Shown piece after piece: positions 14,066-56,424 of a DNA stretch of 64,000 nt. The number at the start of each line of letters is the position of its first letter. The stretch's first letter is position 1. Origin of the DNA: Yuukianura sp. NJ FZ-2021. Taxonomy: Eukaryota. The notes under the pieces were generated by a model that searched no databases, was not told where the DNA came from, and saw only the letters and a program-made list of their open reading frames with translations. The stretch is taken from positions 8,804,001 through 8,868,000 of the forward strand of contig CM102287.1 of the NCBI GenBank assembly GCA_046563655.1, given 5' to 3'. A program made the translations under genes and the position numbers.

Positions 14066-17000
14066 TTAATAATAAGATTCTCGAGGTCTTCGATCCGCCG
14101 CAGCAGCTCTACTACGTCTTGCATTTGCAAATGTAAGCGAATTAGTTGAAAATTCGGAATTTCGAAATCCTTGTTCCTGTGCTCCGTACGGTGGATTCAT
14201 TTCGTTTTGTGCGTAAAACACCGAAGAGTCAAAATGGAACCGGGTGAAAGCCGGAGCTTGTTGCTGCAGCGGAATTTCCAAAACAGGAAAAAACTGCGGC
14301 TCGATTGGAATAGCCGGAAAGCGTTCAGAAGATCTGCGTGTATCTTCTGCAGAAGTCCGGAATCGTTCCGAAGATCTCCGGGTTTCTTCCGCTGACGTCC
14401 GGAATCGTTCCGAAGATCTCCGAGTTTCTTCTGCCGACGACCGAAACCGTTCCGAAGATCTCCGAGTTTCTTCGTTCGGCACTCGATGTGCTTGTACTGG
14501 TGTTGGTCTTACAGGGCTTGGTTCAGTAAATGTTGGTCTTTGCGGAAGAGATATTGAACGGAGGATGGTGGGTTGATCAGGATTGAAAACGAATTGATCT
14601 GATTGGCGTCGGTGGAGCATGGCCCCACCATGGTGGGACCCATTTTGGTACGCATCGTGCAGAAGGAGACCTTGGTTGAGTGACACTGAGCGAACCATAC
14701 TCGCTTGTGACTGTGGACGTTGGTAGGCATGGGGTGGGGGCGGTGGTGGAGGTGGAATGGGAGATTCATTGTCTTCGGAAGAAACGTCGGGGGAAGAGCA
14801 GTTGCTATTTGGAATTTTGATTCCGAGGATTCCTGAAATTTCAAATTTTGAAACTTGAAATTTTGAAAAGATTTTTCTCAAAGTAGTTTTTAGTCATACC
14901 TGAAGACAGGATTAACGCTGCTGCTGCAATGTAAAACGAGTCTTTTTTGAGGAAGATGAAGATGGCAGTGGAAGCTAGAAGCGGAATGGCCATGATCCCT
15001 TGCAGAAGGCCCCAAATCCTCTCCCAGTGCTTGGTTCTCGTCAGCTCCATTCCCACTATCTTGAGTGTATAGAGATGAGCTCCTGAAAAAATTTCTAAAT
15101 TTTGAAAAAAATTTCAAAAAAAAAATCAAAAAAAAATTCGTTTTATATACCTAAAGCGATTCCGTAGGCCCAAGATGCAAGAGAATAAGCGTAGTAACCC
15201 TCCAGTGTAGATATGCTAAGAATCGACAATCCTGGAAATACAACAAGCGAATGCAGCTCCAGAATGTTGAGAAATTTTAAATTTTTTCAAAATTTCAATT
15301 TTTTTTTGAAAATGTTGACCTTTGCCCCTGACCTGTGAGTAGGGCAGTGATGGCAGCTCGTCTGCGTGGAAGGATTGACCACGTACTGTTTCTTTTGAGT
15401 GTAAGGATGGCTCCGAGGATCACGCCCAGTGACAGGCCTAGGCCCAAATGTGTTTGAAGCAGAAGCAAACTCCCGCCTGAAAGACCTTCTTCACGACTTA
15501 CTTCCAACTTTCAAAATTTTGAAAAAAGAATTATAAAAATTTGAATTTAAAAAAAAATTATGTAGGTTAGGTCATTACCAATAGAAAAAGAGGCATGAAG
15601 AGCCCTGGGCTTCCCACCGCAGTGGCCCAGAGAAGTGGCTTGATTTGCGGCACACAGAAAAGGTGAAGACTTTTGCAAAGCTGTCCACCAATTGGCAGTA
15701 AAAATTTCTGCAAAAACAGAATTTCGAAAGAAAAACCTCAGAAAGTTTCAAGTTTTTCGTAATAAACATAACCTGCCATAACATTGAAAGCATAACATAA
15801 CAATAGTCACAAGAAAAACGAAGCTTTCTTTATCAAAAGTGAAAGTGAAGCGTTGTTTCCCCAATAAACAAGGTTGCTACAGCGCTCATTTATACAAATG
15901 CGATAACAGGTTATGTCATATAACTCACTTTTTCAAAAAAATTAAAAAAAAAAAACAACTTTTGTACGAATATTTGCTTTATAATGCGCGAGGTCAGCAT
16001 ATCACAGAAAAAATTCAAAACAAACAATTTTTAATGAATAGAAGTTGTGGCATAACCAGTTAAGAAAAAATAAACAAAATTTAACCAACACCTTGCCCAA
16101 AAAACAAAGAGTTTAGCCTATAGTTGACAAAAAAACGTAATTTGACCTTGACCTACCTTAGGTTCGTGACCTTGTGACCTAGTGGAAGTTCGTTTTAGAG
16201 GGTGCGAAACAGGTCGGTAAAAAATTGGCAAAATGGCAGTGATGAGAGACAAGGCGCCCCCTATGATAAACCCATCTTCCCATTCTACGTGTCTGCCCAG
16301 GCTCAGAAATAGCAGTGAAAACAAAGTGAGTCCAACGCCAGTGCCGGCCATCACGACTTGCTCCACAAACTGACGCCTACGTCTGCCAAAATTTAAAAAA
16401 GTATTAGAAAACTTTTTTTTCTAGAACAAATTGTTCAAAAAACTTTTTCATCGAACAGCCTGTGCCTTCTTCTAATGAAAATTTTCAACTTTTTGAATTA
16501 AGAAAAAATTTTACCTAAAGTAGTGCCCTAGAAGAACATTTGAACTTTCCCGTACCAGACTAGAACCGATTCCACCCAAGACACCAAATCTTGAAAAATC
16601 AAATTTCATAAAAACTTTTTCAAACTTTTACAATTTTGATTTTCGAGGGATAATCAGATTATAGCTTACGTTAGAAAAATGTGATGGACTTGCGTTACGG
16701 ACGAAGTAAGAAAGAGACTCAAAGGGAATATACAGCCTCCAAGAATTGAAACGAGACGAGCCTGTCGTCTTTTACATAGGTTGACAACAAATGGTGCACA
16801 AATGTACGAAATTGAAACAGAGAATGGACCCAAACAACCTAAAATTTTAAAAATTTCAAGAAAATGCAAAATTTGATAATTTCAAGGTTTGTTAACTTTG
16901 ATTTTCTTTAACAGGTTGAGTAATACCTCATTGAGTAATGAGTTTCTTTTTTCATTTCATGGTATCGTAGTCATAATAACAATACAGCGGAATTTTTTAA

Positions 17001-22849: not shown

Positions 22850-25800
22850 ATGGCAGGATTTACATTGTCTCTTTTGATTTTGGTTTTACTTTCTCTTGCT
22901 GCATCTCAAGAAGTAGACGAAGAGGAAAGGAAAATCTGGAAACCGGAAAGATCAAGTAAGATATAAAACAGAAAATATGTTTTATAAATATTTTTTAGAG
23001 AATATGTTAGAGTAAAAATTAATTTGGTTTTGCTTAGAGTGGATAAAGGGAAGACATCCGAAGAACAAGCAGAGCTTGATTTCTTGGTTGATCGATGGTT
23101 GTTTGATTGATGAAAAGCTGGAACAATCTCCGCTCTCGTGCTCAGCTGAACCGTTTCAAAAACGATTTAGAGAAGATGAAAAGTCTCATCCGCCGGAATT
23201 TCAAAGTTTTGATGGATTTTACAACAATATTTTCAAAATTGATTTAGGAGCTGTCGGTAAGTCCTTGGAGGGAATTTTATTCCGAGACACGAAATATAAA
23301 AGAAAAACAGAAGAGAAAAGACAAGAAAATTTGTCTTCACCCAAAATTTTTCTTTGGCAAAACACTTGAAATCACAAAGAAAAATTCTGTTTTGTACCTC
23401 TTTTAAACCAAATATTGTCGAGAATGAAAAGTAAAATTTTATTTCTTAACTTTAAAGATACTCCATTGTTAAGAAAAGTTCAACCGGTTTATGAAGACAG
23501 TGTGTACGAACCGGTAAAAGGAACACGAAAAAATCCGTTCGTTATTAGTGATTCTCTGATGACACGAAAACCGGATTGTTTTGAAGACGGTAAAACGGTT
23601 GCATGTGGATCAAAAACTGGAAAAACTGCGTTTTTAGTATACTTTGGCCAACAAGTTGTTGAGGAAGTTCTGGATGCACAAAGACCAGGGTGTCCTCCGG
23701 AGTATTTTAACATTGAAATACCAGACTACCATCGATTCAAAGGAGAAACTTTTGATAACAAAACAAACACGAAAAAAATTACCGGGAAAAGTGAAATGCC
23801 GTTTTTGCGATCCCGGTACGATCAAAAAACGGGTCATTCTCCAAGTAATCCTAGACAACAGGCAAGTCCAGCTCAACCAAAAATTCAAAATTTCAGTTTC
23901 AGTTTTCAAAAAACTGTTTTTTTTTGAAACAGTTGAATGAAATTACACCATGGATTGACGGTGGATTAATTTATGGAACATCTAAAGCTTGGGCGGATGT
24001 TTTACGAACGGACAAAAACGGAAAATTGGCGCCGCGGGGTTTACTGGCTTCGGAAGACGACGATGGTTTGTTCCCAGTAAAAAACCGAATTCGACTCCCA
24101 TTGGCCAATCCACCACCGCCAGCTTTACATGACAGATTTGTTCAACACCATCAAACCTCTCCAGTTGACCGGTTTTTTGGTAAAACTTTGTGAAATTTCG
24201 AAATTTTCAATTTTAAAATTTTGAATTTTTGAATTTTAGTCCTTGGAAATCCCCGCGGGAATGAAAATGCGTTTCTGCTAAGCTTTGGAATTGTGCTGTT
24301 TCGGTGGCACAATCAAATTGCTTCTTACTTGGGAACAACTCGGAAGCATTGGAGTAGCGAAAGAGTTTTTCAAGTTTGTTCAAAATTGAAAATTTTCAAG
24401 AAAAAAAATCAAATTTTTTGAAACTTTTTTTAAACTAGGAAGCACGTAAATGGGTAATAGCCACTCATCAATCAATTGTTTTGTACAACTGGCTACCGGA
24501 GTGGTTGGGCGAAGGAATTGAAGCGTACAGTGGCTACAATGCAGCACTCGATCCACAAATTGAACAATTTTTTCAAACTGCCGCCATGCGTTTTGGACAC
24601 ACCTTGGTCACTCCAGGAGCGTACATGCGTGACTACGCCTGTGCAAACTGTAAACCAATAAGCTTTTATGGATTGCCCGACCCTAACAAACCACATCACA
24701 CTTACACTCAACCGTCAAATTTCAATTCCAATCATTCTGTCCGGACTTGCAACATTTTCTGGCGGCCGAAGGTCAGATCCAAGGTTCCTTGACGACAAAT
24801 TGTATTTCTACAACAGGTTGTCTAATACCTCAAGGTTTCCAGAAATCTTACTTCAAAATCTGCACCAATCCCACTTTCATTACATGCAAAAAATTACCAT
24901 AGAAAGGAAGATTTTTTTTCCGAACAAATTTTAAAACTTCCAGTTATTGTACAACCTGGTGTAGAAAAAAATTTTTTGTTAACGAACCTTGGTCAGATAC
25001 AACGACTAGTTCAAGGTGAAAGGTCAAATATTAACCTACCGTACTATGCTTCACAGGAACCAATTCTGATGCACTATGATCATCATCCTTGTACCGGATT
25101 TAAGAACAAGAATGTGACGGACATTGATCCTCTACTTATGGGCATGGCATCACAACGTTGTGAAAGGGAAGATAACATGATTGTTGAAGATTTGCGTGGA
25201 AATGTATTCGGACCACTTGAATTTTCCCGCCGTGATTTGATGGCTGTTAATATTCAGCGTGGGAGAGATCACGGAACACCAGACTACAACACTGCACGAG
25301 CAACTTTTGGTCTTCCAGAGATTCATTCTGTGGCTGATTTTATAAAATACACTTCCACAGCCACTCCCATTGACATTATTAAAAAGATGGAAGAAATCCA
25401 TATGCCGGATGAAGTGATTTGTAAGACAGAACCGGATTCGGAGGCTTGTCGAACCGAAAGAAGAAAGGCTTGGGATAACATTGATGTTTGGGCGGGCGGG
25501 ATTTTGGAAACGTCGGATCGTCCTGGCCCACTTTTCAGAACAATTATCAAAGATCAGTTTACAAGAATTCGAGACGCTGATAGATTTTGGTTTGAAAATA
25601 GGAAATGGAAACATCCGTAAGTTTCAAACAAAAATTAATTTTTAAATTCACTTATATTTAAAGAATTTTGCAAATTTTTCAAATTTTAGACGATTTTCGG
25701 AAGATCAGATCCAGAGACTAAAAGCAGTGACGATTTACGACATGGTTGTTTCTGTAACGCGCATGCTTGAAGAAGACTTGCAAGCAAATCCATTCAGAGT

Positions 25801-28800
25801 TCCACACGAGCCGGAAGGTTTCAAAGATGACATGAGTACGTATTACTTTCTTAGCCTAACATTTCATAACCTTAGTTTACCTTACACCAAGGTTGGTATA
25901 GCGCCCAATTATACAAATACGCTAACAGGTTATGTCATAATTTTGATTTTTTTTTTTTAAGAATTTTTTGAAAGATGCGTTGGTAGGTCAAAACATTTGT
26001 GGAAGAGAAGTCCATGTTGGAAGCAAAATTACAATGAAGAAGGATTTCCTGACGGAAATGTCATGAATTCAACATGCTACCACTTTGCACAAGTACATCC
26101 TTATTTTAGTTTAATATATTTAATAATTTTATTTATATATGTATTATGCTAAAGTAAAGTGTGATTTACCCTCTCTAATTCATAGCTTGACTCCAAATCG
26201 ACTCCTGTCGAACCTTGTTTTAGAATTGGTCACTACGACTACTTCTACGGTTCGGAGGTTTCCTACGTTTTGACTTTTTTGTTCCTCGGAGTAGCAATTC
26301 TTGGTAAAAAAGAAACTTTTTTGAAACACATATTTCGAAAATCGAAATTTCATATTTCATAATTTGCAGGAATCGCATCACTTGTGCCCATGATGGTTGC
26401 ACTAAAGCAGAAACGGAAAGGAAGTGAACTCGTTCAAATGCAGAAAGAGTTTAGACGTACATTTAAAATCTCTGGCAAAAGTGGAACGCCCTACTCTGGT
26501 ATAAAACTGTAAAATTCGAAAAAATTTACCAAAAAAGTAATTTGGATTTTTTTAAATTTTTATTTCATTTCAGGGCGAGAGTGGATAAGCAACAAAGATG
26601 GAACGAGAGCCGTCGCCGTGATTCTCACTGATAAAAATTGCATTGAAGTATACAGTCACAAAAACGAACTTTTGCGTAGCGTCGATTTTTCAGGAAGAGA
26701 AAAAGTTGATATCATTGTTGTATCTGATGGAGTTCATTTAATTATCAAAAATCCCACGGAATATGACTGTGTTCTCGAATTTGATGGAGAGTTGATTCGA
26801 AATTCATTTTTGAATACGATGCGAGAACAGTAAGGAACCAAAAATTTTCATGAATTTACAATTTCTGAAATTTCAACAACTGTCAAACAAATATTATTTT
26901 TAGGCTTGGCGGTATAATACCACTCGTAGAAAGTACGTCAACGTTAAAACAAGCTCTGGCCTCAGCGACGACTAAACACGACCGAATACACCGACTCGAG
27001 AAATTTTTTAGAATCGTCTTTGCGCAGGCCTTCAATATTGACAAACCCGTCGGAAGTAAAAACTTACTCGATCCGAAAACAATTCGCGAAGTGATTCATA
27101 CCGAAATCACGCGAGTGGAGTTCGCTGATGCTCTGGGAATGAATACCAAGTCACAATTTGTTGAAAAGGTTAGGTCATACCCGTCAAATTTCAAAAGTCA
27201 ACTCAATGTTTCTGTTTTTGGTAGATGTTTGGACTAGTTGATCGCGACGGAAACGGATACATCAGTTTCAGGGAATTTCTGGACATGTTGGTAGTATTTG
27301 CTAAAGGAAGTGCAGAGGACAAGGCTCAACTGATGTTTGAAATGTACGATATCGAGAGGGCGGGAATGTTGTCGCTGGACGAATTCAAAAACATGATAAG
27401 GTCAATGATCGAAGCGGCCAATGCTGACGTGAGTGCCGAAGATGTGAACGACCTTGTACAGTCCATGTTGGACTCTGTTGGAGTCAAAGGTCGCAAAGTA
27501 AGTTCACGTATGTAGAAATGTACTTGACTTTTTTCAAAAATTTCCGAAATTTTGTTGTAGTCACAAGTATCCTTGGAAGATTTTCAGCGTATTCTGGGTC
27601 AATATAAAGATACATTGGGTTATGCACAGTTGAATTTCAAAGGTCTAAATGTACCGGAAACCAAAATGACTTCAGTGCGAACCTCGCAGTACGAATCAGC
27701 ACGGGCCGCTGTAATCAGCGTATACGGCGGGTAACTCTACAGACTTTGAACCTAATTCATAATATATTTGTACATATTTGTACATTATATTATATATTAA
27801 GTATTATATAGTTCTAACACATTGTATGCAACTTATAGAAAAGATGTTGATGACCAGCAAATGCGAAAAGACTCAGGACAAGGTCTACTTTTAGCCGACG
27901 ATCGGGATACTACGGTATTTCCGCATGTGAAGAAAAAGAACAAAGTTACCACGTGGTTTGAACTTTACCGCCTCAACATCTTCTGGACTTTGTTGTTTAC
28001 GTTGCTTGTCCTTGCGATATTTGCGGAAAGAGCGTACTGTAAGAACTTCAATTTTGTGGAATTTGTGTAACTTGTCATGTTTCTCAACTTTTTTTTACCG
28101 CTATAGATTACTCTGTTGAACGGGAACATGGCGGGTTACGACGTATTGCTGGATATGGAGTTACTGTAACGAGAGGTGCAGCATCTGTAATAATGTTCTG
28201 CTACTCGGGTTTGCTACTTACAATGTGTCGCAACACGATTACCAACCTACGAGAAACATTCCTCCATCGCTACATTCCATTTGACAACTTTGTCAAATTT
28301 CACAAATATATTTCCTACATAGCACTCCTGTTTACCGTTGTACACACCGTGGGCCATGCCATAAATTTTTACCACATTTCAACACAAACAGCATGTAAGC
28401 AATCTCTCTTTTACTAGAAATTCTACTTCCCTTTTAATTCTTCTCCTAAGGTTATTTTCTTGAACTTAACTTAAAATTGCAAATAACATGTTTGTAGCGG
28501 ATCTGTCATGTCTGTTCAGTGACTATTTCCGAGCGTAAGTCCCTGCGAAATGACAAATATTTGTTTTTATATAATGATAATGAAACTTTGAAACAAAGTA
28601 AAATTTTGTAAAATTTAGAACGCACATCTTACCGAAGTTTCACTACTGGTGTTTCGAAACAATCACAGGAATTACTGGAATATTACTTGTACTACAGGGT
28701 GCATTGATTTACTGTTTTGCTACAACGTATGCTCGTACCTACGTATTCCGATGGTTCTGGAGAACACACAACACTTACCCAATGTAAGCACAAATTTTCA

Positions 28801-31063
28801 AGCAAATTTTCACTTTATCTTTCAAAATTGTCCTTTTTAAGATTTTACGTACTACTGATCCTGCATGGGTCTGGCCGACTGGTTCAAGAACCATTATTTC
28901 ACAACTTCCTACTTGGACCTTTGATTCTATTCGTTTTAGACAGGCTGGTGAGAACCAAAAACACTAATAAAAATAAAATTCTCAAAATTTTGAAAAAAAG
29001 CAACAATTTTTTGTTTAGGTCAGCACAAGTCGAAGAAAAATTGAAATTCCGGTGCTCCGGGCAGAGTTGTTGCCCTCCAGTAAGCAAACCTCAGTGTTTC
29101 ATGAATTACGAAATACAATTAATTAATTCGGCTGTTTTTTAGATGTAACAAAATTGGAATTTGCTCGTCCAACTGGATTTGAGTACAAATCGGGCCAGTG
29201 GGTCCGAATTGCTTGTCTTGCTCTCAATACTGACGAGTATCATCCGTTTACTCTTTCATCAGCACCACATGAACCCTCCCTTACACTACACAGTACGCTT
29301 TTAACTATTCAGTTTAACTTATGTTAATGATGAACTTGTTATAACCAGTGTTGGTGGATATCCACTTTTTCGACATTTCATCCACGGCTGGATATCCAGT
29401 GGAAGAAATGGACGAAATGGATGAATCCAAAGGGGCGGAGCTTTACCCTCTGAATTTGAATTAATTGACAACAAACAACTAAAAAACGTGAAAACACAGT
29501 TCAAAAACTATGTATATATGTTTTTAAATACGTTTTAAATAATATATTAACTATAATCGCGAAAGTAAAGCTTTCTGATATCATTTCGTAAATTTAAATT
29601 TGAATTTGATTTGAATTTCGCGCAAAATTTGTGATTTCTTCCATCCACTTTTAGTTTCGTCCATTTGGGGTGCGTTTCTTCCAGTGGATATCCACTGGAA
29701 GTGGCAATTAAGCCACTGGACGTTTAAGCGTCCACCAACACTGGTTATAACTGTTATTATATGTAATTATGAAAATCTATTTATATTTTTAGTTAGAGCG
29801 GTTGGCCCATTTACAACTAACATTCGCCAAATTTATGAACGGTAAGTGCTTTTGTTTCAATTCAAATATTAATTTCGTTTTATTTTATATGTATTGTATA
29901 ATAATAATTTATATATTATAAAAATATTTCAATATTGCTTGACTCGTTCAGGAGTCTTCCTAAGTTGTACTTGGATGGACCGTATGGAGAGGGGCATCAG
30001 GATTGGTGGAGGTACGAAGTGTCAATCCTCGTTGGTGGTGGGATAGGCAAGTTTCAAAATTTCATAAGATGTGAAATTGTCAGTTACTGGAAAATTGTGT
30101 GACTTTTTTGACGCAAACGTATAGTAATTGTAAAATAATCCAGTTGTTGTTGAAATTTTAGGTGTAACTCCGTTTGCGTCTATTCTGAAGGGTAACAAAT
30201 TTTTGAGCAATCATATCAATTTTGTGGAAATATTTTAAAATGAAGTTTTGTTAGACGTGGCTTCAAACACAAATGTTCGCAACTGTAAGAAAATATATTT
30301 CCTTTGGGTCACGAAGACTCAGAAACAGTTCGAATGGCTGGTGGACATCATTAGGTAACGTTGAGCAACTGCTAATAACATGCATGTAGTTTCACACGAA
30401 CAAATGTGTTGTTAATTCCAGGGAAGTGGAAAAACACAAAATCATTTCAGTTCACATATTTGTGACAGAAATCTACGATAAATTTGACATGCGCACGGTG
30501 CTTCTTGTAAGTATTAAAAAACAGCTTGGCCTTGAAAACAAAAGTTTTGTCAGAAATTCACACCCCATTGTGATTGCCAGCTATATAGTTTTGCTTTGTT
30601 AATGGGTATGGGGGGCAAAAAAGAGCAAAAAATGTTGTTACTTTTTATAAACTGAGTTCATTTTTTTTTAATTTATTACATCACCAGGTTTTTAATTATA
30701 GTATTTGTTTTTTTTTTGATTTGCAGTACATTTGCGAGCGTCACTTTCAGAAAGTTAATAACAAATCGCTGTTTACCGGCCTAAGTGCTGTTTCACATTT
30801 CGGACGACCAAATTTTCTGTCGTTCTTCCGTTCCTTGCGGACAATTCATCCAAATGTAAACATTTATGCAAATTCCTCTTGTTTGAAAAAAAAATATTTT
30901 AAATTTTTGGTTGCAAAAAATTACCTTTCAGGTCTTAAAGTTTGGAGTTTTTAGTTGCGGTCCACTTCCAATGACAAAGACAGTCGACGACACATGTTCC
31001 GTTTGTAACAATGACATTGATAATCGTGGAGCAATTTTTCAACATCACTTTGAAAATTTTTAA
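22850..31063 (+). CDS. Duox: Dual oxidase (peroxidase homology domain, EF-hands, ferric reductase/NADPH oxidase), >25 exons
   Basis: Signal peptide [67 protein letters not shown]-hand [43 protein letters not shown]-terminal HHFENF*. Confidence 0.96.
24780..24991 (+). mobile_element. MITE family A copy at the start of a Duox intron
   Basis: CAAGGTTCCTTGAC...ACGAACCTTG; flanks GTCAGATC / GTCAGATA. Confidence 0.85.
25888..25945 (+). mobile_element. MITE family B left-end fragment in a Duox intron
   Basis: CAAGGTTGGTATAGCGCCCAATTATACAAATACGCTAACAGGTTATGTCATAA resembles 15869-15922; no right end seen. Confidence 0.6.
29346..29743. mobile_element. hAT-type MITE, perfect 8-bp TSD GTTATAAC
   Basis: TIR CAGTGTTGGTGGA / TCCACCAACACTG; GTTATAAC on both sides; internal TGGATATCCA palindromes. 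Confidence 0.88.
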
Positions 31064-31819
31064 GATCGACTACTTCAATCCTACGTTATGGTAAATAAAT
31101 CCCAATTAATCATGAACAAGAAAAATTTATATTTTCAAATTCACTATGAATTTTCACATTTTTGCTTCTGTAATTTGAAACATTCATTTCCTCACAGTCT
31201 ATCAATTTCGTCGCAGTTCGGTTAAATCGAAATACATACAATTACAACTACAATTAATTCATTTAAAAGACTTGGCCTGGTGCTCGACAACACCCTTCCT
31301 TGGTCCGAGCGCATCATTACTGTCATGAAGAAGTGCAACAAACAACTTAATGAATAACCTATCTTTTCACCATTAAGCCTTGGTGTAATTACCTGTTTAC
31401 AGGGTACCATTGGTCAACTAAAAATCAGAAATCAATCAACTCAAACTAGTAATTTGCGTTTTGGAACCGGTTCTATACCAGCTTTAAAAGTCTACGTAAC
31501 TACATATTTGTACAAATAGAGTTTTTTCCTTAGAAAAAGTACATGCTTATTCAGAATCTAACAACGTTTTGCATGGTACGATGTCGTGCTCAACATGGTT
31601 ATTATTGGAAACCCATAATTTAGACTATTTTTCAAGTAAGATTCCATAATTCTTTAGTTTATGATGTAACCAAAGCTACACTTTGTGGACCTTGCTTCTT
31701 CATTAAACTTCAAACAGTTCCATTTCAACTTTCTTTCAACCAACACTTCGAAACCTTCAATTACTCATCCTTGAATATTCTCAGTTATAAACGTGAAACT
31801 TGAGAACATAAATTTACAA

Positions 31820-33090
31820 ATGTCAATTAATGGTTCTGACAACGAAAGTCAACGCAAAACTGAAGCCGAACATGTTATACAACGCTCAATTTCTGCTGGT
31901 AATAGCCGCGTTTTAGATTTTCCGTTCTTTGAGTTCAAGTTTTCCATATTTTTTAAACAAAGAAACTTATTTGAACTTTATTGACAGAAACTGTGGCAGC
32001 AGCGTCTTCTGGATTTTTTACAGGCAAAGTAGAGTTTGACCTCGGGGAAATCTCATTTCCAGGACATGGAGAAGTTCGTATTAAAGGAGAATATCTTCAA
32101 ATTAATTCAAGTCATAAGCGGATTCAATTAGATGATTCAGAACTTCACATTATGAAGACAAACTTGAGAGCTTGGGCGGAACGATTTTTTGAAATGGAGA
32201 CTCAACCAAAATACTTTGACGAAGTGATTATAACTGGATGCTACTCTGCCGCGTTCTTCAATCCATTTCATGCCATTGATTCACCAGAAATGGGGTTTTG
32301 CACAAAATTTATGTTTTGGATTTTTGTTTTAGATGAAATTGTTGAAATGGCTTTGGTTAAGCAAAACCCATTTGAAGATTTCAAACTCGGCTTGAAACAT
32401 TTCATGCAAGTTCTCAGAGGGGAAACATCCAAGATTCTTTTTGAAAATTTGAAATTTCCAAATTTTAAGGCCCTTCTCGACTCTCTTGTGGACATAGATG
32501 AAGGTCTTGAAAAACATATTGTCGGCTACAGAAAAAAGGTTGAGCCATATTGTTTCCAACTTGAGAGGTTTTTTGAAGCTTATGAGTGGTACGCAGCCGC
32601 AGGGAAAATTGACTTTCGTTATTCTGAAGCAACTTTTCTAAATTGGCACAGAATTATTATTTTTGTGGAACAGTGGATTAGTTCCGTGTTGCTTGTTCTG
32701 GATGTACAATTTCCAGTTGACCTTTACTTGACCCCGGCTGTTCGTCGCTATGTTGAAATAGTCAATTCTCAAGTTGCTATTGTCAATGACATCATTGGGG
32801 TCAAAAATGAATTAAGAAGTGGTGCTCCAGATAACTTTTTGTTGTTTAAAATTTACGAAAAAGGGATTCCAGTGGAAGAATCGGTAGAGCAGCTTCTCCA
32901 AATGTATGATAGCGATCTGCAAGAACTATTTTTGTTACGTCAAGGTCTTCTGAAACAGTTCCCGAATAATCCCAGTATCCTGGCATTTCTGGACGTTTGT
33001 GAAGCAGCGCTGGACGGTAATAATCGATTTCATTGCCACTGCCCGCGATACAGTGCTGTCGGCATGGTTAAACTTACTAATTTAAATTAG
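31820..33090 (+). CDS. Class I terpene synthase/cyclase, microbial type (exons 31820-31898, 31988-33090)
   Basis: Asp-rich motif variant FVLDEIVE; candidate pyrophosphate-sensor Arg (NWHR); NSE/DTE motif NDIIGVKNE; C-terminal RY (FHCHCPRY); one in-phase GT-AG intron. Confidence 0.88.
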
Positions 33091-33098
33091 GTTAGGCT

Positions 33099-33388
33099 CA
33101 AGATTGTTTGAAACTTTGTTAGTTTTTTCTTAACAGGCTATACCATATAACTCCTTTTTTTTCTTCATATTTTCAAATTTTTTGAACCACGCATCTGACG
33201 CGGCTCCGTTGCGTTAGCATTCGAAATCAAAACTATGGATCAGCAACGTGAAACTTAAAAAATTTCAAACGATTATTGTGAAAATAAACAAAATTCGTCC
33301 AAAAGTTTATTATTATTATTATTTGAAAATCGGAGTTATGGCATAACCTGTTACGGCATTTGTACAAATGGCCTCTATAGCAACCTTG
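33099..33388 (-). mobile_element. MITE family B copy just after the terpene synthase stop
   Basis: CAAGATTG...TATAGCAACCTTG; flanks GTTAGGCT / GCTAGGAT (6/8). Confidence 0.7.
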
Positions 33389-34067
33389 GCTAGGATTTAT
33401 AGCTACATGTAACTCAATCACTGTAATATGCAATTAAATTACCACAGTCATTTAAACTAATTAACTTTACATCTTATAAATGATTTAACTATGTTCCTCG
33501 ACTCCAAAATTTTGAATGCCCCAAGAAAATCGATTAGCTTCGAGGTCGCTGCTGCAAATACTATAAGGAAATATAGCCTTCCAAGCACAAATTCTTTTTT
33601 TAAAAGTAAGAACTTTCTCCTCATGCTGCATCTCTCTTTTTGCCAAAACTACGAAACTACGCTCTTCTATTGAACAATCGATTTTAAAGTAACAAAATTC
33701 GCAAACATAACAAATACGGTAATATATTGTATCTAATTTGAAAAGGTAAGCAAAATTTGACCTTGTACATAACATTGCTCAAATTCTGAGCAAATTATTT
33801 GATTTTAGGCTAATCGTAAATTTCGTAAGCTAAATACAACTTTATTTTTCAAAACATAACCTATTTATCATTAATTTTTTTTCTATAACCTAAACTTTGA
33901 ACATAAACGCAGGCAAACAACATAGTTTAGTATTTTGTTTTTTAGGTAATCTTAACATTTATTTGAATAAATCTCATGCAATCCTCGGCCTAACTTCACA
34001 TTTTCGCATCTTTAAGTAATATTTTCTGAAAGTTTCTTCTCTATGCTATTTGACAGGAAACTTCAAA

Positions 34068-35075
34068 ATGGACGCAGATGAAGAGTTGATGAAAGATGCA
34101 ATTCAAGAAGGAAACTACGAAGAGGTTCTGAAGCTCTACGACCGGCTCTACCCCGACGACATTTATGTCGCCGAAGAAGGTTTGCCGTATGATCTCTGCT
34201 TAACGCAAAAAGCAAGTCTACTTTCTCAAAACGGGAAATATGACGATGCCATGGTCATCTACAACACAGCTCTCACAATGAAAGTCAGCGAATTCGGTGA
34301 AAAGTCACGCGAGGCCCAAGCCATTCTCCAGTACATTGGCAACGTCCTTCTGGATCAAAATCAACTCAAAGAGGCTCTGGACCTTTTGAATCAAGTTTTG
34401 GAAAACCAAATTGAAATTTTAGGATCCGAGAAAGATCGATCAAAACCGGATGCTTTTGAAACACGTTACTTGATTGCAATGGTGCTGGAACGGCAAGGGA
34501 AGCTTGAAGAAGCTCTGGCACTGTATGAACAAGTTTACGAAGCATTTTCGGAGTTCAACGGACCGGAAGTGGACTACACTGCGCATGTCGGCTTTACAAT
34601 AACTTCAGTTAAACTTAAAATTGCTGCTGAGAAAAACGAAAATCTCGGTTTGACCGAAATTTTAGAAATTGTGGACTACGGTCCATCCGTCCTGGACATC
34701 AAGAGACATTGGGAACACGGGAAAGACACAGTACTGCACAGAGTCGTGAGGTCAAACGTTGCTAACTTTGTTGAAATCGTATTGGACGGGATTCTGAAGG
34801 AATGTGGAGAAGATGATGTCAAAGCGGCGGAATTTTTGAATTTTGAAAATTCTGAAGTCCAAACGCCTTTGACGCTTGGCGTGAAATACTTCTGCGACCA
34901 GAGTGTCAAAATTCTGCTTGAAAAAGGAACGGAGCACGGACTGGACGTGAACAAGGTCACCAAATTTGGCGAAAATGCTATGAAAATTGCAAGTTTGCAA
35001 AGTACTTGCAAAAATACAGAAGTCATCAAAAAGTTGTTGGCTGAATACAATGCAACATTGCCTCTAGATGCCTAA
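34068..35075 (+). CDS. TPR-repeat + ankyrin-repeat protein, intronless CDS
   Basis: Kinesin-light-chain-type TPRs (GKYDDAMVIYNTAL, IGNVLLDQNQLKEALDLLNQVL, QGKLEEALALYEQV) followed by ankyrin motifs (KDTVLH, QTPLTL, VKILLEKG, DVNKVTKFGENAM). Confidence 0.82.
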   Translation: MDADEELMKDAIQEGNYEEVLKLYDRLYPDDIYVAEEGLPYDLCLTQKASLLSQNGKYDDAMVIYNTALTMKVSEFGEKSREAQAILQYIGNVLLDQNQLKEALDLLNQVLENQIEILGSEKDRSKPDAFETRYLIAMVLERQGKLEEALALYEQVYEAFSEFNGPEVDYTAHVGFTITSVKLKIAAEKNENLGLTEILEIVDYGPSVLDIKRHWEHGKDTVLHRVVRSNVANFVEIVLDGILKECGEDDVKAAEFLNFENSEVQTPLTLGVKYFCDQSVKILLEKGTEHGLDVNKVTKFGENAMKIASLQSTCKNTEVIKKLLAEYNATLPLDA

Positions 35076-38175: not shown

Positions 38176-39454
38176 ATGAATTCAGCCGTTTTTGGTTTGT
38201 TGCTTGGGAGTTTGGCTCTCGCAGCCGGACTTGCCAGTCCTTTTAACGTAAGATAACCCAAATATATATGTAAATTCTATTAAAATTTTGTTTTATTTTT
38301 ATAATGCTGTTGTATTACCTAAATACATTATATACAAAACATGTTTTTCTTATTTTAGGAGAAGGGCGAGTTGCGCATTGGAGGAGGTTGTATGTCGGAG
38401 CAGGAAGTGGAAGAACATAACGCCGGAGGGCATTCGTACACGGTCGGGTTCACACCATGCGAACGTGGCGCAGTTTGCATTGAAGGTAAATGTGGATACA
38501 GGACTGGATTGCTCGTTCCAGCTCATTTGACAAAAGACTATTTCGACTATACTGGACCGACACAACAGATTCTCGGTAAAGACAAAGTCACATGGGGTCC
38601 GAAAACGCTGGATTTAAAATATGACCTCGGAGAGAACGTCATCGGAGCAGAAAGTTCAGGTATTTATTTCGTAGATGTGCTCAAAAAGTCATTCGGTATA
38701 AACGGAAGCTAATGTTGTAGGACCAGAGAGTGAGGAAGACGATGACGAGGGGCAAACTCCAGGCAGAACACTCGAACTCGAATTACGACCGGATCAAATG
38801 TATGATATCCTACCAGTACAGTTGACCAAGGAAATCCGCGTCCCACAAGTTACACGCGAGTTTCAAACAGAACGCCAACTGACCAAGGAAATCCGCCTTC
38901 CACAAGTAACTCGCGAATTTCGACCAGAACCACGACAACAACTGACCAAGGAAATCCGCCTTCCACAAGTTACACGCGAGTTTCGACCAGAACAATATCA
39001 AATCAAGACAGAGGAACTCCGCGTAGGTGTTCCACAAGTTACGCGCGAGTTTCGACCAGAGCAATACCAACAGGTGACCAAGGAAATCCGCCTTCCACAA
39101 GTTACACGCGAGTTTCGCCCAGAACAATACCAGCAGGTGACCAAGGAAATCCGCCTTCCGCAAGTTACACCCGTGTTTCGACCAGAACAATACCAACAGG
39201 TAACCAAGGAAATCCGCCTTCCACAAGTTACACGCGAATTTCGACCAGAGCAATACCAGCAGGTGACCAAGGAAATTCGGCTTCCGCAAGTTACACGCGA
39301 ATTTCGACCAGAGCAATACCAGCAAGTGACCAAGGAAATTCGCCTTCCACACGTTACGTATGAGACGCAAGTTGTACCAAGAACCGAGCATCGTCAATTT
39401 GTCGTCAAGAGCAATCCGGGAGGAGACGTTTCCCTTGACAGCATTTTGTATTAA
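38176..39454 (+). CDS. Secreted protein: 4-Cys module + acidic linker + 21-aa tandem repeats (exons 38176-38247, 38359-38659, 38721-39454)
   Basis: MNSAVFGLLLGSLALAAGLASPFN/EKGELRIGGGCMSEQEVEEHNAGG...CERGAVCIEGKC...; in-phase introns; QVTKEIRLPQVTREFRPEQYQ repeats. Confidence 0.82.
38818..39360 (+). repeat. Coding 63-bp tandem repeat, ~8-9 units
   Basis: Unit differences are mostly at third codon positions in the + frame. Confidence 0.92.
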
Positions 39455-40139: not shown

Positions 40140-41276
40140 ATGAATTTTGTTACCTTGAGTTTCCTGTTCGGACCGTTTGCTCTTACATCTGCCTACACTT
40201 ACACCTATGGTGTTCCAAATCCAATTACCGTAAGCAAATTTAAGGTCAACATTAGTCATAGAGTTGTCAAGGTCATTTCGGTGTTTTTTCTATTAACTTA
40301 ATAGAAAAAAAATCAAAATCGCCTTGACAACTCTATGACATTAGTTACCTAGAATTACATAGATATCAAGGTTCTTGACATCCAAATTGTATTTCCTAAA
40401 GCAGGTTGTTCAATAACTAGGGTTAGCAAAAATCTTGCTTCAAAATTTCTGCACCAATTCCTATTAATATAAACCATAGAAAGGCACGGCGAAGAAAATT
40501 TTGCAAATTATTTAACAAAATTAAAAACGTCGAGTTATTGGACAACCTGGTGTAGAAAAATATGTTTTTATTTGTTTACGAACCTTAGATATAGTAATTA
40601 AATGTTATGCTAATATATTTACCAGGAATCTGGAGAGTTGCGTATTGGAAGTTTCTGTATGACGCCGGCTGAAATTGAGCAACACAACGCTGGTGGAAAC
40701 ACGTACCAAGTGGAGTACCGTACTTGTGAACGCGGTGCGGCATGTTTGAATAACAAATGTCTCCAGTTATGGACCAGCCCATACGCAAGTGAATATTTCT
40801 CAGGAACGGTGTACAAGAAGAAACGTCCTGCACAGGCGCAACCTCAACGTGCCGGACAGATTAAGATTTTAAGCGGAAGTAGTACTGGCAGTGGTGGATT
40901 TCGGATTCTAGATGACAAAGAGGGGGCACTTCTGACCAGTCAAGGCTCAAGGGCTCCTACGCCTGATGACTACGTCGTACCACAGGAGTTCCTCCGAACA
41001 GCAACCAACGAAATTCGAATTATGCCGCAAAAGGAACTCGAATTTGAACAAGTTGGATTTCCGGAACAAGCTGAACAGGTTACTCGTGAATTTCGACCTT
41101 TTCGATTTGTACCTTACCAGATTATTCGTGCACCGCAAACTCCTCGAGAAAATCACATCGATCCGCAGTATACTGCTAGAAACTGGATCGTCGAAGAGAG
41201 TCGTGAAGGTGATCCTGCACTTAGCAACATGATGGTTCCAACCCATAAACGTATTCCAATTTCAATTTATCCATAA
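40140..41276 (+). CDS. Secreted protein with the same 4-Cys module (exons 40140-40229, 40626-41276)
   Basis: TATAAAA at ~40063; MNFVTLSFLFGPFALTSAYTYTYGVPNPIT/ESGELRIGSFCMTPAEIEQHNAGG...CERGAACLNNKC; one QVTREFRP unit. Confidence 0.8.
40257..40337. mobile_element. 81-bp MITE with CATAG termini, perfect 8-bp TSD ACATTAGT
   Basis: TIR CATAGAGTTGTCAAGG / CCTTGACAACTCTATG; ACATTAGT at 40249-40256 and 40338-40345. Confidence 0.88.
40367..40586 (+). mobile_element. MITE family A copy in the same intron
   Basis: CAAGGTTCTTGACA...ACGAACCTT; degenerate (T)AGATAT flanks. Confidence 0.82.
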
Positions 41277-47693: not shown

Positions 47694-48651
47694 GTTATTA
47701 CAAAATGTATTTACTATGCCCATGACCTCTGGACTTGGTGCGGTTGAACAAGAAATGAGTGTCTATTATTTACCAAAGTCATCTAATACTCTCAGACTTT
47801 TCCACTCTCTTATAACAAAATTGTAGGTCTAACTATAAAAAAAGTACGCTCTACTACACCCACACAGTACTGAAAAATAAACCGAATTCCGGAAAAATGT
47901 GTAGTCCTAGATTAGCCGAAAGCCGTCAATAATGGCGAATTGCCAACAATAACTAAAAGTGGAGCAGAATGTTTTAACTTCAGGTTTGGTAGAAGATTAC
48001 CAAAAAATAGCCAGGATTACCTTTCAATAAAATTGTATTAAAAATTAAAGAAAAAAAGAATTCAATAACTAAGAGTTTAAAGGAAGAATGCATTTCTGAT
48101 AATTGTTTAAAACAGGAATTGTTAAATTTCGATGTTCGTGTTAGAATTCCAACGTTTTTTCGCGACATTTAAATTAAGCGACATGATACAAATCAGGTCA
48201 GGTGACAAGCTTTGTTTTATCAGAAACCCCGCCGTTTTTAAATTCAAACTGAATTAGTGGCGGGAAAAAGTGTGGACATTGAAAGACGGGATGTTTAAAC
48301 TTTTAAGAAACTTAAAAGTATAAGAACTTTTAATGAAAAGTTCTCAAACATGGAATCTTTTCATTATTTTTTACTTTGCTTTAAATTGTTGTAATTAAAT
48401 TTAGTTATTTAGGAAAAGAACTAATTCAGGACTTAATTTTGTTTAAATTAAAAAAATAATGAAAATAATATGCCCATCACTGATGCAAAAGGGGTGCATG
48501 TAATATAGTGTTGTGTAGGTAAGTTTGAGAGTAACAATTTTGTTTTCGGTAAGTCAGCTGTTGCTTGGCAATCGGGCCTTTCATTTTTTCTGAAAACCTC
48601 AATTACTAATTAAAGTCAACTAAGTTTAATTTAAACTTGCAGGTCCAGTTA

Positions 48652-51600
48652 ATGATGGGTTTCGTATGCGCAGTAGCAGACTGTTCGAATTGTCAATCGG
48701 GTATTACAGAAGGATACAGGCCGTACTTCCGGTTTCCAATTAACAGAAGAGAACTTTGTGAGCAATGGATCATCGAATGCCGAAGAACGGACAAGTTCAA
48801 CCCAGCGGACTTTCGCGTATGTCCAGATCATTTTTCCGCTGATGACTTCGAACGCGACGTGGAATCCGAGCTAATGCATAGGATGAGATTAAAGCCGGAT
48901 GCCGTTCCCCGTTTACATCCTAATAGACTAAAGATCGAGGAAGACGAAGACGAGAGTAAGCCATAAGTTAACGTTCACAACTTATTTTAAACATTGCAAT
49001 CTTCGATTACTAATTTGATTTTTTATTCAAGTACTACCGGATTCTGGAAGTACAACATCGGAGAAAGTCATTCAGCCTTCATTTAATCTAGAGAATGGTG
49101 GCTGCGTAGTATGCGGAGACTTAAACTGTCTCTCCATCCAATCATACGAATCAGACCTAGAATTAATGAAGGCATGGCGAGCAGGCTGGGCAAAATCACT
49201 TTGCAAGATGTTGGACGTAGGAAGTGGCTATGAAGAAACTTTCTTAGAAGGAAAATTTTGTTCTCGGTGTCAAGAGATGGTATGTAAAGGCGAGGCTGCA
49301 ATGAACTTCCTTCTACATCTCCAGGATCAGCTGAAAGAAGTTGAAAAGAAGCTGCAGCAACTTTTCCATAACAAGGATTCCATAAAGATCGAAAGTCATG
49401 ATGAGTCTGATGATGACATGGAGTCAATTATCAACAGTGTCAGATTCGATAGATTGAATTATAATTGGACTCCACCAACAGTTGACTATAATTGGACCCC
49501 TCCAGCAGCTGATCCAGTAACCTCGGCCATTGATCCGCTGGGTGGTTTTGGAGAAGATGGATTGATTCCGGTAAAGAAACGTCCAACAATAAGCAGGCTT
49601 AAGGAATTGAAGCAACGACAAGAACACCGCCCCTCTACGTCACCACTAACTGCAAGCCGTCGTGGTCCTGGTCGCCCTCGTAAGAAAGTCGTTGAATCTC
49701 AACCGATGGAAACAGATACAGATCCATTTGATGGTGTACATAACACTGACCTAGTAGCTCTTCCACTTACCACGGAGCGACAAGGCAATTTATCAATCAT
49801 TTAATTTACTTTAGCAAAATGGCAGTATTCCGATTCAGTAAAACGTTTAACATTTCTTTTGTTCATAGTTTCCTTAGACGGAATGGAACTGAAGCAAGAC
49901 GACGATGATTTTGGTGATCTGGGTCCACACCAATTTGAAAATGTATTCGCCAGTTTTATGCAGTTAGGTGATACGGAGACAAGAGATGGAGAAACCGAAG
50001 GTATGACATGAAAGTTGTAACAAAATTATTGTAGATTACTTATAATTGTGATATGCATCATGTAATAAACGTTTTCTGGTTGAATAGCTACAGGAGGTGA
50101 AGATTTGATTTTGAATTTACATTCAACTGAGTTAGCGTCAACTTCTGAGGACTTCAGTACGAATGCTGCGGACCAAGCTAAACAAAAACAGTTACAAAAT
50201 GCGTTTCCGGATTGGCGTTTACCTCAACGTGCTTCCCGATACATTTGCAACCACCCAGACTGCTTTTCTCGAGACTTGTGCTTTTCTCGTCCCACGCTGG
50301 TTCGAACTCATTGTCAGACTGAACATCCAGGTCAAGGTCTTGATCTCACACCTTACCACTGCTCAAATTGCGAAGATCGATTTGTTACCGCCGACAATCT
50401 CCGAGTGCACAAACTACAAACTCATCCTGAACTGGATCCAAACAAGTACGGATGTCCCTTCTGTGCTCAAAAGTTTCACAGCAGTGGAAGCCTTGGAACG
50501 CATTTGCGGTATTGTAAAAGCAACAACACTTCTACTAAAGCTAAAGCTGAGCCGAAGCCTGCAAAGGTGAAAATCCCACCGTGTCCAATTTGTGGCAAAA
50601 CTTTTGAATGGCCAGAAGAAGCCGAACACCATGCGACTCTCCATGGAAAAGACGAGCCACGAAAGCAAAAAACATGCGTAATGTGTTCTTCGGTGGACAA
50701 ACCCAAAGTGTTTCGCAGCAAAGCTGAACTGAGACGCCATGTGAACTTCTCTCACAATATTCCGGAATCGATTCCTCCTCGTGTACTGAGTAAGGGAAAA
50801 AGAGCCAAAAAAGCTTCTTTACGTCTGCGACTGAAGCGAGCTCGGATTGTAATGCAAATACGGAGATCTGAACGTGAGCATCTCAAGAAGGACGTAATTT
50901 TCTGTAACTTTCCAAAATGTATGGCCGGTAACGCAATTTTTTCCTCCCGGTTACGACTACGAACACATTTGAGAACAGAGCATAAATTCACTGTATTGGA
51001 AGCTTTATGCACCTACCATTGCGATAAATGTGAGTTGCGGTTTGAACATTCCAGCCAATTGGATGAACATAAACGACGTGCCAAATTTGATCCACGGCAT
51101 GATGTTGAACCAGAAGATCCGGAAGATCTGTTTTGGTCTTCAGCAGAACCAGAAGAATCAGCTGATCGACCAAAGCGTACCGGAAAAACAGCTGACCAGG
51201 CTACACCTAAACCTACTGAAAATTACACATCTTTCCTCTGTTCAGAATGCGGTTACTTCTGCAAGTTCAACTGGCAATTACAGTATCATATCCAGATCAA
51301 TCACAGCGCAACAGGAGTCATCAAGTGCAAATTGTGCGGAAAATGTTTCCGGGGTTCACAAAAAGAAAAAGAAGATGCTGTACGATCACACGAACTTCTT
51401 CACTCTGATGACAATGTTTTTGGATGCGTCTTTTGCGACAAGAATTTGAGATCAACTATCGAGCTGGCCCAACACGTTCGGGATGTTCATGAAGATTTTC
51501 CATTCAAATGTAACGAGGAGGGCTGTGGAAAAGGATTTGAACTGGAAGTTCAATATCAAAAGCACATGAAGAATCACACCGCTAATGCTCGAGTTTACAA

Positions 51601-52387
51601 GTGCAAAGAGTGCGACTTCATCGCAAGACGTAGCAAAGGCTTGCACTATCACTCGATCGCCAAGCATTCCACCGAACATAAGTTTCCATGCACTTTTGAA
51701 GGGTGCCAAAGGACTTTCAAATTTAAACTAAGAAGAACTCTTCACTTGCGACGAGTTCATGGAGTTGGAGTCACCCAACTTTATAAGTGCAGAATATGTG
51801 CAATGGAGTTTGTCGTGGCATCGTCCTTAACGAAACATGAGCAATGTCACAGTAAAGAACGGCCATTCATCTGTGAAATTTGCTCGGCATCATTCAAATG
51901 TAAAGCAACTCTTAGGCAGCATTACAGAGTCCATAACCCGGATAAGAAAACTGGAAACAACTGGAAGTTGCAGCAACCGAGAAAACCAAGACTCAAATCA
52001 TCCGAAGCGGAACGACTGGCTCACCGCATGTTGGAGAAAGCAAAGGCAGCGAAGAAAACTTCTACTCCAGCAGCAGCAGCAACAGCAACCGGACAGATAA
52101 CAGAATCTACTGAAGATACTTCTGCCCAAGCGCAGCAAAATGACGTCCCCATGAGTGGAACTGAATCTGCATCTTCACTGAATCTTCAACAACAAGCTCC
52201 GTGTTCATCAGCAATTGCTCAAGGACATCTTCCAGAAGTGCTGCCGCCTCGCACGTCGTCGCTTGTCGAACCATCGCCAGTACTACAGCATTGGCATTCG
52301 CCCTATCCTCCTACAAACTTGGAACTCTCTACAGTGGATCCAAGAATTTGGCAACATTTTGCCAATTACAGAAATACTCCGTTCTAA
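48652..52387 (+). CDS. THAP + ZAD-like + multi-C2H2 zinc-finger protein, paralog A
   Basis: THAP: CAVADC...RFP...W...VCPDHF...LKPDAVP; exon 2 CVVC...FCSRC; long C2H2 array with HSKERPFICEIC linker. Confidence 0.85.
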
Positions 52388-52929
52388 GTTTAAAATTTGA
52401 ATTGTACTTTCTATATAGGTGTGAAGATTGTTATGAGGATAATAGTATCGATCGAATTTATTTAGGATCTAATCAATTTTAGTGTCTCGTTTTTGAACGT
52501 TTTGGAAACGTTTCATTTTCGAATCGTAATTTCCATTCCAATAATGTTCGTGTTGTTCCGATTTTAGTAAATGTAGAACCGTTAGATTTCTACAACTCGT
52601 AAGTCCTTATGATGTGAACGCTGATTGTAAGGTTGTATTTTAAATTTTATTTTTGAAAAATTTCAGGTCAAAGGTCATTTAGACATTTCTTTTGTAATTT
52701 TTATAAAAACAAAAATTTCTGCAGTAAGTTGCAAAAAATACGGTGCCCAGCTGTGACATAAAAGTGCGAAAGAGTATCGTTCAGATATGTCTGATATGTT
52801 TTAGACCAACCAATTTGTTTACGCTGTCAGTTTTTCTTTTTAGTCAGGTTAGGTTTTATTTGATAAGAAACGATTTCTAAACGAAGTTAATTAAAGTTTA
52901 ACTTAATTTAGACCAAGAATTGTGTGATA

Positions 52930-55674: not shown

Positions 55675-56424
55675 TTATGCTGAAGGGAGAACACATTCGA
55701 AGGCAATGTTGTTCAATGAGGTATCGTCCTCTGCAAGTGTCAAAGGTCACAGGTTAAGTACATAATTGAGTTAATTACTATGATTATCGATTGATTAACT
55801 TACGTAAGTTTCCTTGATCAGGTTGGACTTGAGTTCTGAGGCCGGAGACAACTTGACCTTCAGGACAGTGCTGCTCTTCGCCCCATTGTCCATAAGGACT
55901 ACAAGAAAAATTCAAAAGTAAGTATTTTGTTTAACCATTAAAATATGTTGTTTTTTTGGTAATTGTTAATTGGTTTCGCTTATGTTTTAGTACCCTCCAT
56001 CTCCTTCGATGTAAGTGGTACTGCCTGTGCAGAAGACACGGACGTTGTTTGTAGCAGTTTCGTCTTGATAAGCATCAGGAATCTCTACTTGCAATTGGAA
56101 CCCCGTGATGAATCCTTCGTTGGGACAACGATGCCTGTTTCTCCATTCGCCCCATTGTCCGACACTGCTCTCAATGTATGGAGTCGTTGAGTTGGTTGGA
56201 TCTCCGCAGTACAGTCGAATGCCGTTGGCTGAAGTGTCGTCGCCTGGTCCTCTGATTCCTTCAACGAAGAGCTGGAATGCTTGGGCGTAGGTTCCTTCCG
56301 GACATCGGGAAAAATCTGTTGCCCAGTTTCCCCAGTTGGTTACGGGGGGTGACGTGATGACATCGCTCTGAGCGAGACCAATGACAGCGACGACGACGAA
56401 CGTTGACAGAACGAACTTGGCCAT
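55675..56424 (-). CDS. Vitelline membrane outer layer protein 1-like (VOMI beta-prism), 3 exons
   Basis: Signal peptide; WGNW, CPEGTYAQAFQL, DDTSANGIRLYC, WGEW, DETATNNVRVFC, DDTSLNNIAFEC threefold repeats. Confidence 0.9.

Follow-up and report, generated by a model that had tools for sequence, protein, structure and literature searches.

A terpene synthase gene of microbial type next to Duox in a probable springtail genome

The gene and its host locus

We analyzed a 64,000-nucleotide stretch of the Yuukianura sp. NJ FZ-2021 assembly (contig CM102287.1, positions 8,804,001 to 8,868,000 of the forward strand; hereafter the window, to which all coordinates refer) that carries a terpene synthase gene at 31820-31898 and 31988-33090 on the plus strand, as two exons separated by an 89-nt GT..AG intron. 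The gene lies between the multi-exon Duox gene (23370..31063, plus strand; the start is that of the first frame scanned against Pfam, and the stop codon is at 31061-31063) and a single-exon gene for a protein with tetratricopeptide repeats (TPR) and ankyrin repeats (34068..35075, plus strand). A 223-bp repeat resembling a miniature inverted-repeat transposable element (MITE; 33131..33353), with terminal inverted repeats at 33131-33160 and 33326-33353, begins 41 bp past the stop codon of the terpene synthase. An earlier note on this DNA had proposed that the gene is a microbial-type class I terpene synthase resident in an animal genome rather than a contaminant; the family, the fold, the codon usage, the intron and the flanking genes described below all bear this out.

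The stop-to-stop frame at 31975-33090 on the plus strand is open across 371 codons, a run without stops that has a probability of 6e-12 at the base composition of the window. This frame lacks an ATG upstream of the conserved N-terminal strand segment of the protein, and the start is supplied by a predicted 79-nt exon 1 (31820..31898, plus strand), which opens with the ATG at 31820, carries 26 codons, stops one base into a split codon (phase 1) and joins in phase to 31988. The predicted intron (31899..31987, plus strand) is of the spliceosomal type, begins with GTAATA, ends with TTGACAG and has a GC content of 29%. Exon 2 (31988..33090, plus strand) comprises 367 codons and the TAG stop, and contains the whole terpene cyclase alpha domain. 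The predicted spliced coding sequence is 1182 nt long (393 codons and TAG) and yields a protein of 393 amino acids, in agreement with the earlier reading of a short 5' exon followed by a spliceosomal intron. In this model, exon 1 is the ATG-opened exon that the intron joins in frame to exon 2. The intron is kept in the genomic contigs of two public DNA runs (X1 and X2), as DNA should show; the gene is presumably expressed and spliced as modelled. A tblastn search of the window with the protein found no second copy of the terpene synthase, the next matches having E values of at least 0.46.

Duox was recognized by its An_peroxidase exons (23370-25620) and a Ferric_reduct domain (28043-28417) in the Pfam scan. 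Its last frame ends in HHFENF, and the ATG of the terpene synthase follows 757 bp past the Duox stop codon on the same strand, so that the position directly downstream of Duox given in the earlier note is confirmed. A 159-residue Duox segment (25120-25596, about 6.2-6.7 kb upstream of the terpene synthase) is 73% identical to its counterpart in Orchesella dallaii and 69% to that in O. cincta, compared with 65% in Folsomia candida and 59% in Allacma fusca, whereas other arthropods reach at most 59% among the matches listed. This one marker, searched against a large protein collection, points to a springtail (Collembola) as the host, probably a member of the Entomobryomorpha that the collection does not include. 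On the other side, the TPR and ankyrin repeat gene (TPR_12, E 1.2e-16; Ank_2, E 2.6e-6) starts 978 bp downstream, and genes with carboxylesterase, AMP-binding, THAP/C2H2 zinc-finger and VOMI (vitelline membrane outer layer protein I) domains lie farther downstream.

Given that the family is chiefly bacterial and fungal, we considered whether the gene could stem from microbial contamination, or from an assembly chimera of a microbial gene with an animal contig. In favor of such an origin, none of the contigs of four public DNA runs, which are short, bridges Duox to the terpene synthase, and parts of the 30-32.3 kb interval are uncovered in runs X3 and X5. However, animal genes lie within 1 kb on either side of the gene, on one strand and in one sequence, and the stretch with the gene is present in public DNA runs from two studies. 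GC content is flat across the region, and both GC and codon usage resemble those of the neighbors: the relative synonymous codon usage of the terpene synthase correlates with that of the pooled neighbors with r 0.63 (0.42-0.81 for the neighbors among themselves), and GC content at third codon positions is 0.34, compared with 0.33 in the Duox exon. The gene also needs its 89-nt GT..AG intron to reach an ATG. Moreover, summed contig depth in run X1 rises to about 9000 in the bins at 33020-33521, whereas the bins on either side have about 50-300, and contig joints are numerous at 33161-33327, inside the MITE-like repeat; we conclude that the repeat adjoining the stop codon is one that is dispersed in this same genome. 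Finally, a search with the single protein found no close prokaryotic relative in 185,579 prokaryotic species genomes, and the best match among 1.84 billion representative proteins was only 33% identical. Because of the Duox and TPR-ankyrin flanks, the host-like codon usage, the required intron, the adjoining high-copy repeat and the lack of a close prokaryotic relative in these searches, the terpene synthase is supported as a resident springtail nuclear gene, and we regard contamination or chimerism as very improbable.

A further repeat and a possible second one were observed on the Duox side of the gene. An extremely high-copy repeat occupies 29255-29756 in a Duox intron, where summed depth in run X1 climbs to 124,000 and dozens of alternative joints occur together with loose ends at 29346 and 29743. 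In the interval from Duox to the terpene synthase, a short frame at 31226-31357 resembles by eye the conserved C-terminal part of a reverse transcriptase of a retrotransposon lacking long terminal repeats (non-LTR), and contig depth in run X1 is 575 in the bin at 31263-31513, compared with about 130. If this frame is a retrotransposon remnant, repeat remnants would lie on both sides of the terpene synthase.

Family, fold and relatives

Searches were made with the exon-2 translation (P0001, 366 residues), whose numbering is used here; full-length numbering is obtained by adding 27. The protein passes the Pfam model PF19086 (Terpene_syn_C_2) with 45.7 bits (cutoff 23.7; E 8.3e-12), the match spanning profile positions 1-197 of 199, so that the profile check proposed in the earlier note gives a positive answer. 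NCBIfam models of bacterial cyclases show weak similarity. When the single protein was compared with solved structures, a fungal presilphiperfolanol synthase and a bacterial pentalenene synthase were matched at E about 3e-4, and a profile of the protein with 17 relatives matched 10-epi-cubebol synthase at E 4.8e-29 and a total of 101 distinct solved terpene synthase sequences at E <= 1e-3.

The AlphaFold2 model built on this 18-sequence alignment has a mean predicted local distance difference test score (pLDDT) of 90.3 and a predicted template modelling score of 0.90, and its predicted architecture is the all-helical alpha-domain fold of class I cyclases. Foldseek returned 304 matches at E <= 1e-3, headed by the BcBOT2, epi-cubenol and pentalenene synthases; template modelling (TM) scores by target length were 0.70-0.82 for the leading class I sesquiterpene cyclases, and the match to BcBOT2 had E 2e-9 and TM scores of 0.70/0.76. 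In the VIA comparison, BcBOT2 (8h6u_B) gave Z 31.3 with a root-mean-square deviation (rmsd) of 3.1 over 320 residues, and about 50 further entries for class I terpene synthases, as well as two N-prenyltransferases of the same fold, gave similar values. The solved sesquiterpene cyclases BcBOT2 (8h6u), 10-epi-cubebol synthase (7zrn), pentalenene synthase (1ps1) and selinadiene synthase (4okm) thus resemble the model in fold (VIA Z 29-31, rmsd 2.7-3.1, about 300-320 residues), and the bacterial and fungal enzymes share with it the metal-binding helices and the RY pair. In contrast, sequence identity to them is only 12-16%, and the first ~20 residues of our protein, predicted to form the first strand of a hairpin, fall outside most alignments. 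We read the protein as a class I terpene cyclase of the bacterial and fungal type with a single domain, the alpha domain.

The terpene synthases usual in insects are derived from isoprenyl diphosphate synthases (PMC11665903), and such an ancestry was considered for this gene. However, the Pfam scan found no polyprenyl synthase family at E <= 10, the only match besides PF19086 being a sub-threshold DUF2097. Every entry listed in the structural and profile comparisons is either a class I terpene cyclase or a related N-prenyltransferase that shares the fold, with no isoprenyl diphosphate synthase among them. Derivation from an isoprenyl diphosphate synthase is hardly credible on this evidence.

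Outside the helical core, the model contains a predicted N-terminal beta-hairpin (residues 10-38, about 32017-32103) and a C-terminal strand (residues 360-364, about 33067-33081), both with pLDDT above 90. The hairpin sequence is conserved across the family, with the consensus EFD..LG..LKG in the alignment, and the profile matches to Protein Data Bank entries begin at profile position 45 or later. The two elements may have been added to the alpha domain in a particular lineage. We rejected the hairpin as a new fold element: the VIA alignments start anywhere from residue 6 to residue 35, and thus only the first ~20 residues are consistently outside them.

An exhaustive phmmer search of the 1.84 billion representatives recovered 74 proteins at E <= 1e-3, including 27 at E <= 1e-10 and 6 at E <= 1e-30. 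A word-index protein search gave no match with the single protein and only one (P0030) with the 18-sequence alignment. A quick maximum-likelihood tree was computed for the query together with the 45 of the 74 matches that are 280-480 residues long, excluding 29 fragments, fusions and one repeat protein. The query falls in groups of 10 and 12 rows with supports of 96 and 97, respectively, in the Shimodaira-Hasegawa-like approximate likelihood ratio test, and all rows of both groups have Gly in the middle of the Asn-Ser-Glu (NSE) metal-binding triad. These Gly-type groups are nested in a group of 30 rows (support 98) that includes a Ser-type subgroup. The terminal branch of the query (0.97) is comparable to those of its neighbors (0.65-1.08). 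One relative, P0014 (779 residues), carries two terpene synthase domains in tandem; in the first of them, as in the gene described here, the Asp-rich motif is a D-E variant.

Catalytic motifs and expected activity

The class I motifs that the earlier note had read in exon 2 were recovered at 32332-32346 (DEIVE), 32785-32811 (NDIIGVKNE) and 33046-33051 (RY), and were compared column by column with an alignment of 73 relatives; P0019 (1126 residues), matched in 16 short stretches, was left out, and each count refers to the rows that have a residue at the position in question. The Asp-rich motif variant DEIVE (32332..32346, plus strand; residues 115-119, or 142-146 in the full-length protein) keeps the first Asp and the last acidic residue of the DDXX(X)D/E definition (PMC8450962) and has Glu for the second Asp. 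Asp occupies the first column in all 57 relatives. The second column holds Asp in 54, Glu in 2 and Asn in 1 of the 57, and the last acidic column holds Asp in 36 relatives and Glu, as here, in 18. The NSE triad variant NDIIGVKNE (32785..32811, plus strand; residues 266-274) retains the Asn, Asp and Glu of the ND(L,I,V)XSXX(K,R)E definition, with Gly in place of Ser. Its Asn is shared with 63 of 64 relatives, and its last residue, Glu, is found in 40 relatives, against Asp in 20. In the middle column, Gly and Ser each occur in 31 of the 64 relatives, and all 12 rows of the supported clade containing the query have Gly.

The third segment, F-x5-R-Y (33028..33051, plus strand), comprises Phe347, Arg353 and Tyr354. 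Arg and Tyr of the RY pair are found in 60 of 62 and 53 of 61 relatives, respectively, and Asn282 is present 8 residues after Glu274, in line with the Asn expected 8-9 residues past the triad; the position six before RY, Phe here, holds Trp in 29, Leu in 8 and Phe in 6 of 60 relatives. Asp115, Glu119, Asn266, Asp267, Glu274, Asn282, Arg353 and Tyr354 all correspond to the family majority or to an allowed alternative. A further deviation, absent from the earlier note, lies at His220-Arg221 (32647..32652, plus strand). The pyrophosphate-sensor Arg, which hydrogen-bonds to the diphosphate, usually stands 46 residues before the NSE triad (PMC8450962), and the residue 46 before Asn266 is His220. 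Of 60 relatives, 52 have Arg in the sensor column and not one has His, which makes this His the sole one among the sequences compared. The following column, 45 residues before Asn266, holds Arg in 17 of 60 relatives and Arg221 here.

Thus, of the three deviations named in the earlier note, DEIVE proved to be rare in the family, whereas the triad Gly and the Phe in place of Trp are both common among the relatives, for which reason we rejected these two as marks of an unusual gene.

Natural enzymes with related deviations have been described. SmTS1 of Streptomyces mobaraensis (structure 29mu), which has VIA Z 29.8 to our model, is active although, like our protein, it has no sensor Arg and carries Phe instead of the Trp six residues before RY; it is unlike our protein in having Gly at the sensor position, the motifs NDLTV and NQRYSYFKE, a bacterial origin and geranylfarnesyl diphosphate (GFPP) as substrate (PMC8450962). 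Re-installing the Arg in SmTS1 halved its activity, for which its authors blame steric crowding of the C25 substrate (PMC8450962). The spiroalbatene synthase of Allokutzneria albata is active although the Ser of its NSE triad is naturally Gly; it differs from our protein in being a bacterial diterpene synthase, and the likeness is taken from the description of it cited in PMC8450962. A sensor-less enzyme of Streptomyces sclerotialus still yields hedycaryol (PMC10509563). Since active enzymes without the sensor Arg exist, this residue is not an absolute requirement. Replacement of the second Asp by Glu in pentalenene and trichodiene synthases lowers efficiency and alters the product mixtures, and does not abolish catalysis.

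On these grounds, we infer catalytic activity, and would expect the two replacements, Glu for the second Asp and His for the sensor Arg, to affect the rate or the size of the substrate more than to eliminate catalysis. To judge by its family, the enzyme would bind an oligoprenyl diphosphate, namely farnesyl diphosphate (FPP), geranylgeranyl diphosphate (GGPP) or GFPP. Three Mg2+ ions would be held by Asp142 and Glu146 on one helix and by Asn293 and Glu301 on the opposite helix, with Arg380-Tyr381 gripping the diphosphate (full-length numbering for all six residues), and ionization would then start a carbocation cascade in the hydrophobic helical pocket. The product may serve in defence or as a pheromone, as the earlier note had proposed.

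Several observations weigh against activity and suit a different reading, namely a weakened or inactive paralog that is under relaxed constraint and drifting towards pseudogenization or a non-catalytic role. Two conserved catalytic positions deviate jointly, namely the second Asp (Glu in 2 of 57 relatives) and the sensor Arg (His in none of 60). Springtails have sizeable families of paralogs, with 277 terpene synthase genes in 21 of 26 springtail genomes, a mean of 13 per species among the 21 and as many as 40 in a single species (Wang et al. 2026, PMC13638087). The bacterial clade of the hedycaryol enzyme, in which motifs deviate, shows low productivity and has inactive members, which its authors interpret as possible pseudogenization (PMC10509563). 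Furthermore, four of five enzymes tested from the springtail Sinella curviseta were active on substrates from FPP to GFPP, and the fifth was inactive in vitro despite perfect motifs, for a reason that the report leaves unexplained (PMC13638087); motifs are thus no guarantee of activity. However, decay sits poorly with a 393-codon frame that is intact and in which all direct metal and diphosphate ligands except the sensor are kept, with an Arg (Arg221) immediately beside His220, and with a terminal branch that is no longer than those of the neighbors. Each deviation, taken singly, also has an active natural precedent (PMC8450962). A weakened paralog is accordingly a substantial alternative, although a less probable one, and we somewhat favor the reading of the locus as a nuclear springtail gene for a class I terpene cyclase that is probably active.

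A bolder possibility is that of a re-tooled cyclase, in which the sensor Arg was lost and a large substrate (GGPP or GFPP) would be turned into a skeleton not yet seen, by a Gly-type animal subfamily with a conserved N-terminal beta-hairpin. It is suggested by the combination of sensor loss and Phe for Trp, both common to SmTS1, with the Gly precedent of spiroalbatene synthase and the rare DExxE motif. We know of no characterized enzyme that has been described with the conserved N-terminal beta-hairpin of this subfamily. We consider this re-tooling unlikely.

Other genes of the window and the springtail context

Several other features of the window were observed in passing. Two neighboring genes at 38359-39454 and 40614-41276 (plus strand) have in common a Cys-containing N-terminal domain with no Pfam match, and the first of them continues into about nine tandem copies of a unit of ~21 residues. 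The genes at 48610-52387 and 52912-55328 (plus strand) are tandem paralogs in which long C2H2 zinc-finger exons come after a first exon of THAP type, THAP being confirmed by Pfam for the 48610-52387 gene only. Two tandem single-exon genes on the minus strand (55987-56436 and 57412-57852) encode secreted VOMI-domain proteins. Also on the minus strand, a Pro-rich frame at 14066-14893 contains four tandem units of the type EETRRSSERFR.

Canonical terpene synthases have been reported from Sciaridae, acariform mites and the springtails Folsomia candida and Allacma fusca, with enzymes active on geranyl diphosphate, FPP or GGPP (Chen et al. 2024, PMC11665903). The gene described here is like these arthropod genes, which are described as alpha-only, intron-bearing and flanked by animal genes, and whose origin is ascribed to horizontal transfer; both DDxxD and NSE/DTE were demanded of intact genes in that survey (PMC11665903), a filter that the DEIVE of our gene could fail on a strict reading.

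The springtail genes of the larger survey form a distinct clade whose origin is left unresolved in the report, and 152 of the 277 have introns (PMC13638087). ScTC1-ScTC5 and the other genes of that survey share with ours a collembolan host, nuclear genes often with introns and the alpha-domain-only class I architecture, and were found via terpene synthase Pfam domains including PF19086 (PMC13638087). The ScTC sequences, compared by eye only, also have, before the helical domain, a conserved segment near the N terminus that resembles a strand (PMC13638087). They differ in motifs, ScTC1-5 being described with DDXXD, a sensor Arg, NDXXSXXXE and RY where our protein has DEIVE, His and Gly, and in length (422-469 characters versus 393 amino acids) (PMC13638087). 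In its host, its family, the structure of the gene and its size class, the gene agrees with what has been published for springtails, and it probably belongs to the divergent family of animal-resident genes known from Collembola. It is distinguished by the DExxE motif, by His in place of the sensor Arg and by its close linkage to Duox.

Earlier publications already cover the occurrence, distribution and activity of the terpene synthase family in Collembola, and the gene opens no new question. It adds one more clearly host-resident canonical terpene synthase for springtails, physically linked to conserved animal genes, and this linkage helps to counter the old assumption that soil hexapods depend on microbes for their terpenes. 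Filters based on DDxxD require the second Asp, and genes such as this one might therefore be dropped from genome surveys. As an intact gene in which Glu replaces the second Asp and His the sensor Arg, the locus constitutes a natural experiment on how far class I motifs that are supposed to be essential can drift in animals.

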